Shown: in pieces, positions 4,449-26,181 of the stretch
Layout: every line of letters starts with the position of its first letter
How positions within the stretch are numbered: position 1 is the first letter of the stretch
Virus record (IMG/VR): IMGVR_UViG_2872158770_000007
Reading direction: 5' to 3' (one strand)
Origin: a virus
Lineage: Duplodnaviria > Heunggongvirae > Uroviricota > Caudoviricetes
DNA length: 29,095 bases
Notes under the pieces: generated by a model
What the model was told of the DNA's origin: nothing
Database searches by the model: none
Seen by the model: the letters and a program-made list of their open reading frames with translations, nothing else
Position numbers and translations under genes: made by a program

Positions 4449-9399
<4,951 letters not shown>

Positions 9400-10023: not shown

Positions 10024-10580
10024 TAGATGATATTCTCCGTTGCTTTCAATGTAATATTCATGATGTTCCCAATAGGCAATGAATAATCATTGTCTGGATC
10101 TAATACAGCCTCGATCATGAGATTGTTATATTTGAGTGCTTCACTTGCCTGTACTGTATTTTGTAGAGCAGGGAAAATAGTAATTGAAGTACTGGTACGT
10201 TCTACGATTCGATATAGCTTATTGTGATTGGAAAACTGTACCCACTCACCCACAGCTAATGTGTTAGTACTGATAGGTACAACCATATTACCCGGTTTAG
10301 TGAGAGCAGTAGCGGTTACTGCACCAGTCTGTTTACCGTAATATGTACCTGCAAGCCCCAATGACATAGTGAAAGGTTTGCCCTGTGCATATTGAGCTAA
10401 AAAGCTATTCACTTCATTTAGTGATGCAGGATTAAAATTAAGGGTGAACTGAATTTGATAGTATTGAATTCCAGTACTTCTCATGATACGTTGACCTGTC
10501 CATGTTTGATTAGAATAGATCGGTTCAGTACTTTTAATTTGAAAGTTCGTTACTTTTATTTGATTTGAAAAGGATGCCAT
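10023..10580 (-). CDS. minor/distal tail protein, lambda gpM-like
   Basis: 185 aa, first structural gene after the tape measure module. Assignment is by position and weak motif similarity. Confidence 0.4.
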   Translation of the reverse strand: MASFSNQIKVTNFQIKSTEPIYSNQTWTGQRIMRSTGIQYYQIQFTLNFNPASLNEVNSFLAQYAQGKPFTMSLGLAGTYYGKQTGAVTATALTKPGNMVVPISTNTLAVGEWVQFSNHNKLYRIVERTSTSITIFPALQNTVQASEALKYNNLMIEAVLDPDNDYSLPIGNIMNITLKATENII

Positions 10581-11164: not shown

Positions 11165-13378
11165 TTATGTATTACGTTTTTGACTACTTCTCACAGCTTG
11201 AGAAACACTATTGGCGTGTTTCTTAAGCATCTCATTAAATTTCTTGTCATCATCAGCTACATCACCCTGGATGATCAATGGTGCGTTAACGGTAATATCA
11301 CCTGAAGTACTTCCACCTTCTTGTTTATCCAAGAATGCTGTTAATTTCTTATTCGCTTCAGGCTGCACCACTCTCTCGCCCTGCTTAAGTACAAATGATT
11401 TGTTGTCATAACTTGCTGGTAGTTCATCTACCCCGCCATGGAACTGACCAGCAGCAGCACCCTTTGCAGTACTAATAATCGACATACCAAGTGAAAGTAC
11501 TTGTGCATAGTTTGCCAATGAAGCTGGCCAAGGGGTAGCGAGTGCTTGGGCCAATGCTGACTGAATTGAAAGTACTGTCTGTGCAATGCTTATGCTCTTA
11601 CTTAGGGTAAATGCAGCTTGTGCAGCCCCACTACTTTCCCCAAACGCATCAACCATGCCCTGTGATAGTGACTGTGCAGTACTTGAGAAGATACTTAACT
11701 GATCCTGTGCATTCTGGTTACTGATTTGGATGGCCTGTGCATTGTACTTTGCCGTGATCTCAGCTTTACGTTTCTCATAGTCCTCATGGCCTTTCAGCAA
11801 CAACTCATTCTGCTGAAGTTCAGCATTCATAGCATCAGCGTTATCTTTCAACTTCTGATCGGTATCGTTATAGGCTAATGGATTACCACCATTGATACGC
11901 TGATTCTGTTGCTGTGCCAGATACCCCTTCTGATTGTCATTGAGTAGACCGGAACCAATAAGAGCATTGGTATCTTTCAGACCCTGATTAGGATCTTGAT
12001 AACCAACCATTGAATTCAGTAAATCAGTACGTTGTTTAGCACCATATGCAGTAGCGTTCTTTAGCATTTCATCAGGATTGATACCGAGTACTTGAGCACT
12101 ATCGGTGATGGTTTTAAGAAGTGCCTTTTGTTGTCTGTCGAACTGCTGTAGACGTACCTGAAAACCATCTTCCCCAACTTGAGCAAGAGCAGCTTCCAGA
12201 TTACGTTGAGCCTGTAGGCGTTTTGCATCTGCCGCCTTTTGTGCCGCTTCTGCCTGTTTACGTTGTTGTTCTAACTTCTTCGCTGCATCTTCAGCTTCTT
12301 TTGCCTGATCAACCCATCCGCCAGTAGGAGCGGTAGCAACCGCAACATCGGACTTTAGGTTGTTTGCCAGTTCTTCTAAACGTGCCTTAGCCTGAGCGAA
12401 CTCATTACCCTTGTTGCCCTTATCATCCATGATGCCAGTATTGAGTGCTGCACCCTGGTAGTTTAATGCCCCTGCTGTACGTAATTTTTCCCAGATATCC
12501 AACATATCCTGTAGAGAACCCTTGGAAGTTTTAATACGTTCATTCAGATCTTCAAACAAACCTGCCTCGTGAGGTTTTTGATTTGCAGCATCATAGACAC
12601 TGTTCATGGCATTAACTAAAGGTGATAGGCCATCAGCAATAGTACCTTTAATGCTGGTAGTAAGTTTCCCAAGGTTTTTATCGAATTCAGCATATTTTTC
12701 AGCAGCATCATTAGTTACTTCAGCATTTTGTGACTGGATATAGGCTGTAGCTTGAGCCTCATTATTGAACTGCTGAAGAGTACTAATCATGTGGCTTGAG
12801 TCACTGGCTAACGTTTCCATTACGTTAACTATTTCACTCTGTGATTTACCTGCATCACGCATGGCGTAAAAGGTGTGGATCACAGCCTGCATACCACCAT
12901 CAGCCTGTTTTAAGTACTTGTTATAGTCCTGTAGGTTGAGTCCATATTCTTTAAGATCATCGGATACACCACCGCCAGCACGAAAAGCATCACCGAGCTT
13001 ATCCAAGGTATCCTTGTTGAAATCACCAAACTTATCAATCTCAAGACCGAGGCCACTAAACGCCGCTGATAGCTGTTGTAACTGAACCACGGACAATCCG
13101 GTACTCTTACTGATCTGGTTCATTTCACGCACATATTCACGTGATGATTCTACTAATGCTGCCAGGCCACCAATACCAATAGCCGCAGCACCCGCGATCC
13201 CGGTCATAGCAGTACCGAACCCGCCAGCCATACCAGTTATTCGGCCTGTGAACTCTTCAACAATGCCACCAGCAGTACTACCAAATTCCTCTAATGATTC
13301 AGTACCAGACCTTAAAGCACGCTGTAAACCGGAAGAATCACCCGTAATATCTACACGTATTCTATTATTATTTGCCAT
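11165..13378 (-). CDS. tail tape measure protein
   Basis: 737 aa. Gly/Ala-rich N-terminal region (GMAGGFGTAMTGIAGAAAIGIGGLAAL) and long coiled-coil Q/A/K-rich repeats, directly downstream of the G/GT chaperone pair. Length implies a long non-contractile tail. Confidence 0.85.
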   Translation of the reverse strand: MANNNRIRVDITGDSSGLQRALRSGTESLEEFGSTAGGIVEEFTGRITGMAGGFGTAMTGIAGAAAIGIGGLAALVESSREYVREMNQISKSTGLSVVQLQQLSAAFSGLGLEIDKFGDFNKDTLDKLGDAFRAGGGVSDDLKEYGLNLQDYNKYLKQADGGMQAVIHTFYAMRDAGKSQSEIVNVMETLASDSSHMISTLQQFNNEAQATAYIQSQNAEVTNDAAEKYAEFDKNLGKLTTSIKGTIADGLSPLVNAMNSVYDAANQKPHEAGLFEDLNERIKTSKGSLQDMLDIWEKLRTAGALNYQGAALNTGIMDDKGNKGNEFAQAKARLEELANNLKSDVAVATAPTGGWVDQAKEAEDAAKKLEQQRKQAEAAQKAADAKRLQAQRNLEAALAQVGEDGFQVRLQQFDRQQKALLKTITDSAQVLGINPDEMLKNATAYGAKQRTDLLNSMVGYQDPNQGLKDTNALIGSGLLNDNQKGYLAQQQNQRINGGNPLAYNDTDQKLKDNADAMNAELQQNELLLKGHEDYEKRKAEITAKYNAQAIQISNQNAQDQLSIFSSTAQSLSQGMVDAFGESSGAAQAAFTLSKSISIAQTVLSIQSALAQALATPWPASLANYAQVLSLGMSIISTAKGAAAGQFHGGVDELPASYDNKSFVLKQGERVVQPEANKKLTAFLDKQEGGSTSGDITVNAPLIIQGDVADDDKKFNEMLKKHANSVSQAVRSSQKRNT

Positions 13379-13730
13379 TCTTTTTCTTTCCTAATACCTG
13401 AGATTTAATTAACTCCCCTATAGATTTAATATCATTGGATTGAGCCTCTTTAGTTTTTAATTTTCTTTCTTCAGCTTTCTCTGAAGTACTCTTAGTACTA
13501 TCACTAAGCACATCAAGAAAATCAAAATCCTGTACCTTGATACTTTTCCTTGCTTCTGGTGTTAGGTTGCCATTACTGATAGTGGTGTAGTAACACTGGT
13601 ACGCATGTTTCATCATTTCAATCTGCGTACCGGATGGTTCTATAAAAGTATCGTAGATCATAAGCATATTGAGTACATCAGGATCTAAACTAAAGTATTC
13701 TTCAGGTGATAAGCCTCTTTTGTTAACCAT
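13368..13730 (-). CDS. tail assembly chaperone T-like segment, expressed as G-T fusion by -1 frameshift
   Basis: 120-aa ORF in the -1 frame relative to the upstream G-like ORF. Translation across the junction in the -1 frame is open (KKVRGDIELKYFCKMVNKRG...). Confidence 0.55.
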   Translation of the reverse strand: MVNKRGLSPEEYFSLDPDVLNMLMIYDTFIEPSGTQIEMMKHAYQCYYTTISNGNLTPEARKSIKVQDFDFLDVLSDSTKSTSEKAEERKLKTKEAQSNDIKSIGELIKSQVLGKKKNGK

Positions 13731-13762
13731 CTTACAAAAGTACTTTAATTCGATATCACCTC

Positions 13763-14074
13763 TTACTTTTTTTCTACTTCATCTACAGGTTTCGCAGTAT
13801 TGATTAAAGCAATAATTGCTGAGTAAATTTCATTCTGGATTACAAAATCAATAGAGTTAACATTAATTCGTCCATCAATATCTTCTTCTGCGAAGATAGG
13901 ATCACCATTTTCATCTTTTACACATAGGATTAGAGTTTTAGCCACATCAGTGCATTTCTGGAAATCCTGACCATTTGGACGATGAATAAAGATGATTTCA
14001 CCCATTACTTCATGTGGTTTTAATTCTGGTTGTAGTTTTTTCTTCAATTCGTTTAAATTCATTTTCATCTCCAA
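13763..14074 (-). CDS. tail assembly chaperone, lambda gpG-like
   Basis: 103-aa acidic protein between the major tail gene and the tape measure. Ends ...VEKK at a slippery heptamer. Confidence 0.6.
   Translation of the reverse strand: MEMKMNLNELKKKLQPELKPHEVMGEIIFIHRPNGQDFQKCTDVAKTLILCVKDENGDPIFAEEDIDGRINVNSIDFVIQNEIYSAIIALINTAKPVDEVEKK
13766..13772 (-). promoter_or_regulatory. programmed -1 ribosomal frameshift site A AAA AAG (dnaX-type) at the end of the G-like ORF
   Basis: Minus strand reads gta gaa aaa aag taa. Plus strand carries c-ttttttt-c at 13766-13774. The stop codon follows immediately; the -1 frame is open into the T-like ORF. Confidence 0.6.
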
Positions 14075-14107
14075 TAAAAAAGGGAAAGTTGAGCACCTTC
14101 CCTTTAT
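14075..14107 (-). terminator. rho-independent terminator/attenuator after the major tail tube gene
   Basis: Minus-strand RNA: aaagggaagg-ugcucaa-cuuucccuu followed by a U-run (plus-strand A-run 14075-14080). Imperfect ~8-bp GC-containing stem. Confidence 0.55.
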
Positions 14108-14113
14108 TTATTA

Positions 14114-14587
14114 TTATTCGCCCGATTCTGGTTTTGGAGTAATCAGACCTGAATCAATTGCTTCACCATCAACTGCAAGGGTGAAAGTCTTAGTTACTAC
14201 TTCATCTTTATCACCACCGATAGTGGTACTTGAAACAAAGCAGGTATAAATTACAAAGAAACCTTCTTTTTTAGTTGCATCGGTAAAATAGCTTAGTTTT
14301 ACCTGACAACGTTTCTGATCGTCTGCAAGTTGTTCTAAATTCTGATGTACTGCATTATCTGGTAAGTAGTTAACTGCAAGAGAAATGTCCGGGATTGACT
14401 TAGTACCCAATAGCTTACGATCATAAGCATTATTGAATGTTTTTACGCTAATTACAGTACTTTCAAAGCCTGAAGTACTGAAGGTGTTTACCTCTGGTAC
14501 TTCTACAAAGTCAGTAGCAACTGTTTTACCAGCACTTGAACCTACTTCTACAGTAAGGTTAGCACCGGAAAAAATATCCATAGCCAT
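14114..14587 (-). CDS. major tail tube protein
   Basis: 157 aa, immediately upstream of the G/GT chaperones (conserved position of the major tail protein). Followed by a terminator. N-terminal ~145 aa paralogous to the N-terminus of the 883-aa protein. Confidence 0.65.
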   Translation of the reverse strand: MAMDIFSGANLTVEVGSSAGKTVATDFVEVPEVNTFSTSGFESTVISVKTFNNAYDRKLLGTKSIPDISLAVNYLPDNAVHQNLEQLADDQKRCQVKLSYFTDATKKEGFFVIYTCFVSSTTIGGDKDEVVTKTFTLAVDGEAIDSGLITPKPESGE

Positions 14588-14645
14588 AGTTTTATATCCT
14601 TATAAGAAAATTTTATTGGAGTGAATCCGTTCACCCCGTTTATAT

Positions 14646-17297
14646 TTATTTATTATTTAATAGCTGTTGTACTAAATCTTTTAGCTGATTAATTTCTTCT
14701 TGTTGGGCTTGAATAGCTCCCATCAAGTCCATCACTATTGGATTTAAATCAACACGTGGATGATCACGAGTGACAATCTCCCCTTCTATTTCAACTGTTT
14801 CTTCATCATGCTTAATGTACTGCGGAGCAGTCAACTCAGCATCTTCGGCGATAACACCAAACCTAACCCTTTCTTGTTCATCATCCTTGTAGATAAACGT
14901 TACTAAATCTTGTGACATTATCCGATCTAATGCTTCAACTGGATTTGCTGGAGTTATGTCTCTTTTAAACTCACGACCTGATGTACCTTGAGCTTGCATT
15001 ACTAACCATCCAAACCATGTTGTACCGTTCCCGCCTCGTACTCTTAAAGTACCACCACCGTCTATCTGAAGCTGAGAGCGATTTGCCCCTGGGTATCTTT
15101 GCATGTGCAATAAAGGGGAATATTTTTCACTATAGTTAATACCTGAGTCACCTGGCCCTGCATACATACCGTTAAAGGTGATGGTATTGGCATCTGTCGG
15201 TCCCGAAACAGCGGTATTAGTCATCCATCCTGATTGAACATCAGTTAGGATCGTTCCAGTCGGCCCTTTTAGCCCCCATAGTTTATCCTCTGCACCATTT
15301 TCAGAAATAAAAAGGGTGAGATCAGCCTGTCCAGTCTGTCCCATCGTTTTACCAACCCGAAAACCACCAGATATTTCAGTTGATGTACCAATGTTGCATA
15401 TCGAACGAATACGCCCTCCAGTTACATAACTACCAATTGCCGTAGAGGAAGGGGAAGAAGCAATAACATCCCATTGAGGACTAACTGAAGTACGACTACT
15501 CAGCAAGTTTTCAACCCAGCGTTTGGTAGTCGCGTCAGAATCAGAGACAGGATCTCCTGCTAAAGAAGTTGCACCCGTAGGACGAATCGCAGGCCATAAC
15601 TCAGCCTGAGTCTTAACACCAGTACCGCCCTGCGGAATTGCTAATGCTTTCCAGCCAGTGAAAGCACCCGCAATATATGTAGCTGAACCCCATTGCCCTC
15701 CATCATAAACCACTAATGCAGCGGAAGAATCAGCGGATTTAATAGTTGTTAAATTACTACCTTGATTAAAGCGATCCACCTGAAAGTTTAGGCGAGCACT
15801 CAAAGCATCTGTAGCCCCTGTCCCCCCCTGACCTATACCTAAAGCAATCCATCCAGTACCAGTACTTGCACCCCATGCCCCGTTATCCTGAATTCGGATA
15901 CGGTTAGTCAGGTCATTACTCATCAGATCGGTGTACGTAGCACCCTGAGTCAAACGGTTCACCTGTAGGTTAGTACGTGCTGTAGAGAGACTGGATAGAT
16001 CAGAAAGGTTACTCGCTTTCTTCATGGAAGCGGAATCAAGGGAAGTAATACTGTCAGCTAAAGCCGTTACCTCTGCATCTACTTCATCCATTGAGTAAAC
16101 AGCAAGGTTAATACGTGCTTCTTCCACGTCCCCCAGATCACTTAGATTACCTGCTATCGTAAGCTGGGCATCATCTGTAACCTTCCCTAAGCCAACATCA
16201 GTACTGGTAAGTACTACATCCTCACTGAGTACATGACCGTTGACCATACGTGTATCAGGTACTGAACCTGTATCTTCACTACTCAGTACTACATTTTCAC
16301 TAAGTACATGACCGTTCACTGTACGCGTGTCAGGTACTGAACCTGTATCTTCACTACTCAGTACTATATCTTCACTGAGTACATGACCATTAACTGTCCG
16401 TGTATCTGGTACAGAGCCGGTATCAGTACTGGTAAGTACTACATCCTCACTTAGAGGCTTACCATTCACAGTACGTGTATCAGGTACTGAACCTGTATCT
16501 TCACTGTTCAGTACTAAATTGGCCGTGAGTGCATGGCCGTTGATGGTACGTGTAAGGGGTACGTATCGCCCGTCCATCTGTGTAGCGGTATATATGCGTG
16601 TCCAGGCGGTTGTAGCGTTCTTTGCATAGATACTTAGAGTACCCGTCTTTGTCATCGCAAGAGAACTTACAGTAGTGCCATCTACAAGCCCTACTCCCAT
16701 CAGATCCGCCCCGGCAGGATTGCCTGCTTGAGATGATGGTACTTTGATGAAGCTGTTACCCGTAGGTACTGATGGTGAGTACTGAGGTACATCCGTAGTG
16801 TTCGAACCTAAACCGTAGTCCCCCTGATAGATTGGCGATAGTGCGTTAATGGTCATTGCACGTGCGATCACATCATGTGGGGCAAAACTGTATGCCTTGG
16901 TTACTACTGAACCTTTATCACCGTCCAACTTATAAGAGGTGATATAACCATTCACCATCGCATAAGTAATGGTATTTTCATCCTTATTCATCTGGTACTG
17001 AATGATGATCTGGAAAAGCTGCTGAGACTTAGCGGCATTATCCAAGAATTGATGTGTAGGATCATCAGGTAGGTAGTTAACTACAATATCAAATGGTGCT
17101 ACTGATTTATCAGATAGTAGTACTGTCCTGTAATCACTATCATACGTTTCAAAATTATTTGCTTCTGAATTTATTGTTAAGGTTGGAAAAGTATTAATCT
17201 GTTTAATTACTACATTGCCTGCTCCCTGTGGTGTTCTGTTACCAATATCAGCATTATACTGTACTGATAATTCTCTTCCTGAGAAAATATCACTCAT
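14646..17297 (-). CDS. tail-tube-domain protein fused to a repeat-containing fibre with C-terminal intramolecular chaperone (peptidase S74-like) domain
   Basis: 883 aa. Residues 1-150 align with the 157-aa tail tube protein (DIFSG..L.V, NTF.T, VNYLPDD..HQ.L, GDK..VVTK). Five tandem 25-aa repeats (PDTRTVNGHVLSEDVVLSSEDTGSV). Phage-fibre motifs GQGGTGATDALSARLNFQV and PQGGTGVKT. C-terminus SGREFKRDITP...RFGVIAEDAEL...QEEINQLKDL resembles the self-cleaving chaperone of tail fibres and endosialidases. Confidence 0.6.
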   Translation of the reverse strand: MSDIFSGRELSVQYNADIGNRTPQGAGNVVIKQINTFPTLTINSEANNFETYDSDYRTVLLSDKSVAPFDIVVNYLPDDPTHQFLDNAAKSQQLFQIIIQYQMNKDENTITYAMVNGYITSYKLDGDKGSVVTKAYSFAPHDVIARAMTINALSPIYQGDYGLGSNTTDVPQYSPSVPTGNSFIKVPSSQAGNPAGADLMGVGLVDGTTVSSLAMTKTGTLSIYAKNATTAWTRIYTATQMDGRYVPLTRTINGHALTANLVLNSEDTGSVPDTRTVNGKPLSEDVVLTSTDTGSVPDTRTVNGHVLSEDIVLSSEDTGSVPDTRTVNGHVLSENVVLSSEDTGSVPDTRMVNGHVLSEDVVLTSTDVGLGKVTDDAQLTIAGNLSDLGDVEEARINLAVYSMDEVDAEVTALADSITSLDSASMKKASNLSDLSSLSTARTNLQVNRLTQGATYTDLMSNDLTNRIRIQDNGAWGASTGTGWIALGIGQGGTGATDALSARLNFQVDRFNQGSNLTTIKSADSSAALVVYDGGQWGSATYIAGAFTGWKALAIPQGGTGVKTQAELWPAIRPTGATSLAGDPVSDSDATTKRWVENLLSSRTSVSPQWDVIASSPSSTAIGSYVTGGRIRSICNIGTSTEISGGFRVGKTMGQTGQADLTLFISENGAEDKLWGLKGPTGTILTDVQSGWMTNTAVSGPTDANTITFNGMYAGPGDSGINYSEKYSPLLHMQRYPGANRSQLQIDGGGTLRVRGGNGTTWFGWLVMQAQGTSGREFKRDITPANPVEALDRIMSQDLVTFIYKDDEQERVRFGVIAEDAELTAPQYIKHDEETVEIEGEIVTRDHPRVDLNPIVMDLMGAIQAQQEEINQLKDLVQQLLNNK
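16180..16560. repeat. tandem 75-bp direct repeats (about 5 copies) inside the fibre gene
   Basis: The unit tcaggtactgaacctgtatcttcact... recurs at 16255, 16330, (variant) 16405 and 16480. It encodes the 25-aa protein repeat. Confidence 0.85.
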
Positions 17298-18045: not shown

Positions 18046-23388
<5,343 letters not shown>

Positions 23389-23796
23389 TAGACTGGCCCC
23401 CTGAATCTCCAGACAACCAGTATCACTTAAATAAGTGATAGTCTTAATACTAGTTTTTAGACTAGTCATTGGAGTACAGATGATTGATGTCTTAGGGCCG
23501 GAGAAACGCAGACGGCGTACCACACAGGAAAAGATCGCAATTGTTCAGCAGAGCTTTGAACCGGGGATGACGGTCTCCCTCGTTGCCCGGCAACATGGTG
23601 TAGCAGCCAGCCAGTTATTTCTCTGGCGTAAGCAATACCAGGAAGGAAGTCTTACTGCTGTGGCCGCCGGAGAACAGGTTGTTCCTGCCTCTGAACTTGC
23701 TGCCGCCATGAAGCAGATTAAAGAACTCCAGAGCCTGCTCGGCAAGAAAACGATGGAAAATGAACTCCTCAAAGAAGCCGTTGAATATGGACGGGC

Positions 23797-26181
<2,385 letters not shown>

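Follow-up and report, generated by a model that had tools for sequence, protein, structure and literature searches.

We analysed the junction of two small overlapping genes in a 29,095-nt stretch of tailed-phage DNA (IMG/VR record IMGVR_UViG_2872158770_000007; Duplodnaviria, Heunggongvirae, Uroviricota, Caudoviricetes), which is referred to below, at its full length, as the window. The two genes, here called G and T, form a candidate programmed -1 frameshift pair of the kind that encodes tail assembly chaperones, and the heptamer A AAA AAG lies at the very end of the G-like open reading frame (ORF). All genes discussed at this locus are on the minus strand. The junction has the following features:

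13763-14062, minus strand: G-like ORF, a putative tail assembly chaperone of 99 aa plus TAA, with its probable start at ATG 14062
13766-13772, minus strand: slippery heptamer A AAA AAG in X XXY YYZ phase, the 0-frame codons being GA[A AAA AAG]
13763-13765, minus strand: 0-frame UAA stop, directly abutting the heptamer and present as TAA in 53 of 53 distinct junctions
13368-13766, minus strand: 132 codons of T-like coding sequence in the -1 frame, followed by a stop

The last codons of G are GTA (13777-13775), GAA (13774-13772), AAA (13771-13769), AAG (13768-13766) and TAA (13765-13763), the same ending, gta gaa aaa aag taa, that had been read in a first-pass annotation of this DNA. In the -1 frame a TGA occupies 13781-13779, so any shift is confined to the 16 nt from 13778 to 13763. 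From 13778 this frame runs open to the TAA at 13370-13368; its translation begins S R K K V R G D I E L K Y F C K M V N K R G. A stop between the heptamer and T, which the first-pass annotation had named as the finding that would count against it, was thus not encountered. The third frame has many stops at the junction. The first T codon past the slip would be GTA 13766-13764, the first ATG of T is at 13730, and the 3' end of T overlaps the start of the tape-measure gene (13378). The predicted -1 fusion is 231 aa long and consists of 99 G residues and 132 T residues (...VDEVEKK-VRGDIELKYFCKMVNKRG...). Of the interval originally given for the feature, 13368-14074, the T stop at 13368 holds, while 14074 is a TTG to which the ORF listing extends G; the real start is probably ATG 14062, since homologues begin MNLNEL.

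The slip site is conserved far beyond the window. A profile of the fusion retrieved 64 related loci, 7 from species-representative genomes (Scandinavium, Pluralibacter, Buttiauxella, Phytobacter, Pseudescherichia and Enterobacter) and 57 from IMG/VR contigs. In 62 of the 64, G ends GAA AAA AAR TAA and T follows in the -1 frame; these 62 loci provided the 53 distinct junction sequences compared below. The interval within which the shift could occur is 10-55 nt long in the relatives, mostly 10-31 nt, and 16 nt here. The 12 nt GAAAAAAARTAA are invariant (zero entropy) in all 53 junctions except at R, which is G in 39 and A in 14, although the identity of G to the window's copy drops to ~45% over the same set and the flanking G-frame codon positions have a mean entropy of 0.9-1.3 bits. 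The adjacent D-E codons do take synonymous GAG/GAC variants.

The heptamer by itself would not single out this site. AAAAAAG occurs 16 times on the two strands of the AT-rich window, against 8.5 ± 2.9 expected from dinucleotide shuffles, of which 2 in 100 reached 16. Only three of the 16 copies are in phase with at least 98 open codons upstream and a -1 extension of at least 132 codons, namely the G/T site and the sites in two insertion sequences (IS), IS911 and IS2; the other 13 were rejected as recoding sites for want of the right phase or of a long -1 extension. It is therefore conservation, not the occurrence of the heptamer alone, that raises the G/T site above chance.

Two related loci place T in the +1 frame. 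Locus L009 (Phytobacter massiliensis JC163, ~6284-6320) reads A7-TAATAG where its closest relative, L060, reads A8-TAATAG, and L063 does not differ from L009 in the part examined. The missing A accounts for the +1 placement. We considered whether this +1 relation reflected a different mechanism and rejected it, as it comes down to a single-base homopolymer difference from L060; the A7 run is probably a miscall of the homopolymer or a recent, inactivating mutation.

The stretch between the slip site and the first ATG of T has the properties of coding sequence in the -1 frame. Over the 39 nt past the slip, the -1 frame is free of stops in 53 of 53 junctions, whereas a stop is found in the 0 frame in 53 of 53 and in the +1 frame in 45 of 53. 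The 12-13 codons before the T ATG specify a conserved peptide, V/I-R-x-D-x-x-L-x-Y/H-F/Y-C/L-K-M, and when the codons of the linker are taken in the -1 frame, variability is highest at third positions (1.27 bits versus 0.75 and 0.88). An open, conserved and periodic linker suggests translation in the -1 frame before any start codon is reached. Furthermore, none of the 48 junctions scored has a Shine-Dalgarno-like motif 4-16 nt upstream of the T ATG. A near-perfect Shine-Dalgarno sequence, TAAGAGGTGAT, does lie at 13755-13765 on the minus strand, directly after the G stop, where it overlaps the 5' arm of an RNA helix described below. As a start signal for T it was rejected: the nearest in-frame start, ATG 13730, is ~25 nt away, and the sequence is absent in several subfamilies (TAAAAACCGAT, TAATTGAGTCT).

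The genes on either side were identified from family matches:

14114-14587, minus strand: tail tube (major tail) protein gene, 157 aa, directly upstream of G
11165-13378, minus strand: tape-measure protein gene, 737 aa, directly downstream of T

The tube protein matches PHROG 158 (E 6e-19) and Pfam PF08813 Phage_tail_3 (34 bits, over its cutoff), and the tape-measure protein matches PHROG 13674 (E 5e-86). The order tube, G, T, tape measure on one strand is the placement by which G/T pairs are recognised. The window also encodes distal tail, tail-tip (J-like) and capsid-protease fusion proteins, a portal and terminase subunits, so that, judged by these assignments, the module is a siphovirus-type structural module with the G/T pair in its canonical position.

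For the G-like protein the PHROG match is to family 344, 'tail assembly chaperone' (E 2e-5), and 34 of 37 members of the G family match Pfam PF16459 Phage_TAC_13 at E<=0.01. An AlphaFold2 model of G built from 37 homologues had a predicted local distance difference test score (pLDDT) of 83.8, and when it was used to search the BFVD the named matches were mostly tail assembly chaperones of unrelated phages (top 15 matches, E 8.5e-4 to ~0.1, template modelling score 0.48-0.62). By curated thresholds, the membership of G in a recognised chaperone family is marginal.

Sequence searches recovered the two halves of the predicted fusion mostly as separate proteins. In a word-indexed protein search the fusion query found two T matches (P0001 and P0002, 58-60% identical) and zero G homologues, and a G-only query found 43. 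The nearest G protein (99% identity) belongs to Shigella sonnei, a source in keeping with the IS load of the window. Scanning all 1.84 billion representative proteins with HMMER gave 31 relatives that are either G-sized (~99 aa) or T-sized (~120 aa), and no full-length fusion of ~230 aa was found among those representatives; one protein, P0060 (130 aa), crosses the junction, covering query residues 96-206. Where a source names G homologues at all, it calls them 'hypothetical', 'uncharacterised' or 'phage protein'. As far as these searches reached, the family is small and confined to Enterobacterales genomes and metagenomic or viral contigs, with hosts that carry it as prophages in Shigella/Escherichia, Scandinavium, Enterobacter, Pluralibacter, Buttiauxella, Phytobacter, Klebsiella, Rahnella and Pantoea. 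A megablast search with positions 13000-14600 against phage, E. coli complete-genome and plasmid collections gave zero matches, which indicates that the phage module is not in those collections, though the IS elements it carries are found throughout E. coli. In 50,697 phage records the family had no counterpart except a 36%-identical T-like segment in Escherichia phage DCP80.

In DCP80 (PQ671644.1, ~14.1 kb; locus L067, 3930-4110) the T-like segment lies in the -1 frame between a 118-aa ORF and an 804-aa ORF. The synteny of this junction is the same and there is no A AAA AAR-TAA cassette; it reads TCA AAA GAT, possibly an A_AAA tetramer. All genes are annotated as hypothetical. Two further observations concern the G protein itself. 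A 2668-aa protein, P0066, contains 8 stretches that resemble G residues 50-83 (DENGDPIFAEEDIDGRINVNSID...), and two G homologues match the serralysin C-terminal (RTX-like) Pfam family weakly; judging by these resemblances, the central motif of G may be a calcium-binding-type repeat.

Minimum-free-energy folds of the junction RNA placed a candidate stimulatory structure downstream of the heptamer:

13754-13761, minus strand: 5' arm of the helix (AGGUGAUA), beginning 4-5 nt 3' of the heptamer
13704-13711, minus strand: 3' arm of the helix (UAUCACCU), within the L-S-P codons of T
13717-13740, minus strand: inner hairpin CUUUUGU / ACAAAAG of 7 bp (13740-13734 with 13723-13717), enclosed by the long-range helix

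The AGGUGAUA/UAUCACCU helix comprises 8 bp and closes a 42-nt loop; its distance of 4-5 nt from the heptamer suits a stimulator. In the window's subfamily 80% of helix cells pair, compared with 34-56% when the partner is slid, and the core pairs are kept in 16-21 of 21 sequences; family-wide, the helix specified by hand is paired in 61% of cells. A single full compensatory change was seen, in L007 (GGCGAU / GUCGCC). The inner hairpin is paired in 86% of cells in the subfamily, with zero double changes. Other subfamilies pair the same two regions in other registers, as in L059, where CCGGUGA/UCGCCGG is accompanied by a 10-bp inner stem. When arms were swapped among 11 sequence clusters, the native combinations gave -11.2 kcal/mol versus -9.3 ± 0.85 kcal/mol for the swapped ones (permutation p ~0.02). 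The evidence on the helix is mixed, as its covariation is weak and it does not extend to the whole family; a structural stimulator in the window's lineage is plausible, if unproven.

We consider it very likely that G and T are tail chaperones of the lambda G/GT type, joined by programmed -1 ribosomal frameshifting on A AAA AAG. The first-pass annotation had made the same assignment, and it draws support from the synteny, the phase of the two ORFs, the open -1 frame, the invariant slip site and a T that has no ribosome-binding site of its own. Several results weigh against this reading. On the protein side, the match of G to PF16459 scores 24 bits where the curated cutoff is 28.8, Foldseek gave no significant PDB match for the G model, and the T part matched no Pfam or PHROG family. 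As for the RNA, the window's fold is not unusually stable (z -1.28), RNAalifold found no family-wide consensus structure across the 53 junctions, and within the subfamily the covariation score of the helix was not above that of shuffles (95/500). Finally, the site is intact and yet probably idle in this particular genome, a point that depends on the state of the prophage.

That state is determined by two insertions, each of which carries a heptamer of its own:

8310-8316, minus strand: IS911 orfA/orfB frameshift heptamer, TT A AAA AAG, in phase, with GGAG 11 nt upstream
23797-23803, plus strand: IS2 orfA/orfB frameshift heptamer, GC A AAA AAG, in phase
7391-8639: IS911 body, with a 3-bp target duplication and flanks 8640-9003 and 4449-7390
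~23389-24719: IS2 body, its limits judged from the inverted-repeat pair 23398-23430 / 24679-24711

The elements are 99.5-99.8% identical to IS911 and ~99% identical to IS2, and both have a helix-turn-helix orfA and a DDE orfB that overlap in the -1 frame (Pfam HTH_Tnp_1 and rve). Their phase and identity bear out the earlier statement that both use the heptamer found at the G/T junction. The accompanying claim of three recoding sites of one type in 29 kb describes a coincidence: two of them arrived as IS3-family insertions and there is no shared system. IS2 cuts the large terminase gene in two, leaving an N-terminal fragment of 147 aa (24679-25122) and a C-terminal one of 486 aa (21888-23348), which cover positions 332-469 and 482-979 of the PHROG 15 profile, and IS911 interrupts the J-like tail-tip gene. 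With both genes split, this copy of the Shigella-type prophage is defective. We therefore weighed whether the G/T signal is a relic, intact but neither expressed nor selected in a dead prophage, and regard the chances as even. Against this, two loci (L010 and L011) that are 100% identical to the window over the G/T/tape-measure region run uninterrupted across 8640|7390 and have no IS911, which shows that the insertion of IS911 was recent and, the region being identical, that the signal is undamaged. In any case the question concerns the current use of the element and not its identity.

The same fusion protein could also arise without any ribosomal shift. In transcriptional slippage, RNA polymerase would stutter at the seven A (eight in the AAAAAAAA-TAA variants) and insert one more in a few percent of transcripts, giving a product identical to that of frameshifting. 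Every one of the 53 junctions has a homopolymer of 7-8 A, slippage is known to occur at runs of A, and E. coli genes avoid AAAAAAA, perhaps on that account (PMC4066793, PMC3711429), so that slippage could make a minor contribution. However, the run is 7 A long in 39 junctions and 8 A in 14 and reaches at least 9 A in none, and thus falls short of the length typical of slippage (at least 9 A/T); documented sites typically range from A>7 to A9-10 (PMC3711429), and a run under selection for slippage would be expected to grow longer. The invariant phase, the last base that is G or A (Lys either way) and the abutting UAA are likewise features that matter to a ribosome and are irrelevant to RNA polymerase. 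We judge slippage improbable as the source of the fusion.

Less probable still, to the point where we set little store by it, is that there is no recoding and that the 120-aa T is made from ATG 13730 by re-initiation, the heptamer being just the conserved E-K-K end of G: gene callers do predict T-only ORFs from this Met, the Met is conserved (K-M-V/I-N-K) and the G stop is only 33 nt upstream, but the linker is coding-like and T lacks a Shine-Dalgarno motif, as described above, and GAA AAA AAR is never exchanged for synonymous GAG or AAG-AAG although neighbouring codons vary. A decayed prophage adds to this. At locus L001 (ENA ERZ1332367, a 1.37-Mb contig, 10040-10130), where the upstream part of G is also broken, a junction shortened by 2 nt (GAAAAAATAAGAGGTGAT) puts G and T into a single frame; the linker is still alignable and the product, ...DEIEKIRGDSHLLHFCKMVNKRG, aligns across the junction. 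An in-frame fusion of this sort is what would be expected if the fusion is the natural product.

Under the preferred reading, programmed -1 frameshifting, most ribosomes would translate the 99-aa G and stop at UAA 13765-13763. A minority would slip back one base on A AAA AAG (13772-13766), take GTA as the next codon and continue for 132 codons to complete the 231-aa G-T protein. If lambda is a guide, the tape-measure protein would be coated by G in many copies and GT in few, with the tube protein recruited through the T part. Because UAA abuts the heptamer, there are two routes by which the shift might occur. In the first, two tRNA-Lys would slip in tandem, one on AAA in the P site and the other on AAG in the A site. 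In the second, a 'shifty stop', the tRNA-Lys in the P site would move from AAG to AAA while a slowly decoded UAA stands in the A site, an effect that Weiss and colleagues reportedly described in 1987. Both routes would give the same protein, and the sequence does not separate them. In the window's lineage the 8-bp AGGUGAUA/UAUCACCU helix may add a modest stimulus.

These considerations suggest a bolder and more doubtful idea, which we offer tentatively and think rather unlikely: A AAA AAR plus UAA might be a minimal, self-sufficient cassette in which the pause at the stop, and not RNA structure, sets the G:GT ratio, with lineage-specific long-range stems that pair the first T codons with the K-R-G-L-S-P codons of T tuning it. 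If this were true, the 53 natural variants would form a series for separating the contributions of stop codon and structure to low-level -1 frameshifting in enterobacteria.

Among known systems, lambda G/GT is similar in layout. It too has two overlapping ORFs between the major tail and tape-measure genes, with the downstream one in the -1 frame and without its own ribosome-binding site; the slip site occupies the extreme 3' end of G, and the fusion, as the longer product, would likewise be expected to be the minor one. The lambda heptamer is G GGA AAG. In the present family it is A AAA AAG/A, and the G stop abuts it in every member, unlike in lambda. At the family level the links are the weak matches to PF16459 and PHROG 344. 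Lambda gpG and gpGT are the tail assembly chaperones treated in earlier work (Levin et al., 1993; Xu, Hendrix & Duda, 2004, 2013, 2014; reviewed in PMC5009743), and G/GT frameshifting is widespread in tailed phages, with a ratio of ~30:1 in lambda (PMC5009743).

The GeneTack cluster of 'tail assembly chaperone' genes from HK97-like prophages, for which 6-7% frameshifting has been measured (PMC3711429), also resembles the G/T family, being a prophage tail chaperone pair in bacterial genomes that falls among the clusters with A-rich heptamers. It is described as similar to an HK97 protein, whereas the one match of the present family in the phage records is the T-like segment of DCP80.

The site had been called a 'dnaX heptamer', and the name is apt for the heptamer and for nothing else. 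E. coli dnaX (tau/gamma) has the identical A AAA AAG, likewise read by tRNA-Lys in an enterobacterium, and few heptamers are more efficient in E. coli (PMC4066793). At dnaX, an upstream Shine-Dalgarno-like stimulator and a compact downstream hairpin assist the shift (PMC3711429). In a cassette of the dnaX type the former lies ~10 nt before the heptamer and the latter ~6 nt past it. In the 25 nt upstream of the G/T heptamer, ACTGCGAAACCTGTAGATGAAGTAG, we saw no GGAG, GAGG or AGGA by eye, with no motif scan made, and none stands out in the alignment of the junctions (A2). Downstream there is only the long-range 8-bp helix, of doubtful significance, and, unlike at dnaX, the 0-frame stop adjoins the heptamer. 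Moreover, dnaX shifts at ~50% and its -1 product is the shorter one, whereas at G/T a low efficiency would be expected and the -1 product is the longer.

The orfA/orfB junctions of the IS3 family, to which IS911 and IS2 belong, share with G/T the heptamer, the phase and the alternation between A AAA AAG and A AAA AAA; A AAA AAG/A makes up 72% of the heptamers of the IS1 and IS3 families (PMC4066793). The proteins and their biology are unrelated. IS911 differs in that it has GGAG 11 nt upstream and that its orfA stop is 16 codons past the heptamer instead of abutting it, and its stimulator is described as a three-way junction in a paper cited in PMC4066793.

Two other proteins of the structural module deserve mention. 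Upstream of the 157-aa tube gene (14114-14587, minus strand) lies a tandem paralogue at 14646-17297, minus strand, whose 883-aa product has an N-terminal tube domain sharing 31% identity with the 157-aa protein across 137 aa (E 3e-19). This domain is followed by ~740 aa of tail-fibre-like sequence that ends in a Peptidase_S74 intramolecular chaperone domain; a tube subunit with its own fibre is unusual. A 614-aa protein (18046-19890, minus strand) matches the PHROGs for the major head protein and for the head maturation protease, and by these matches appears to be a protease-capsid fusion.

Altogether, the comparisons give good support to the view that the G/T site is a previously unannotated but ordinary example of the known tail-chaperone frameshift of phages. 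It adds nothing fundamental on G/GT frameshifting, although 'heptamer plus UAA' is a clean natural case of a slip site that abuts a stop. Its value is mainly one of annotation: the joined GT product should be added to the annotations of this family.

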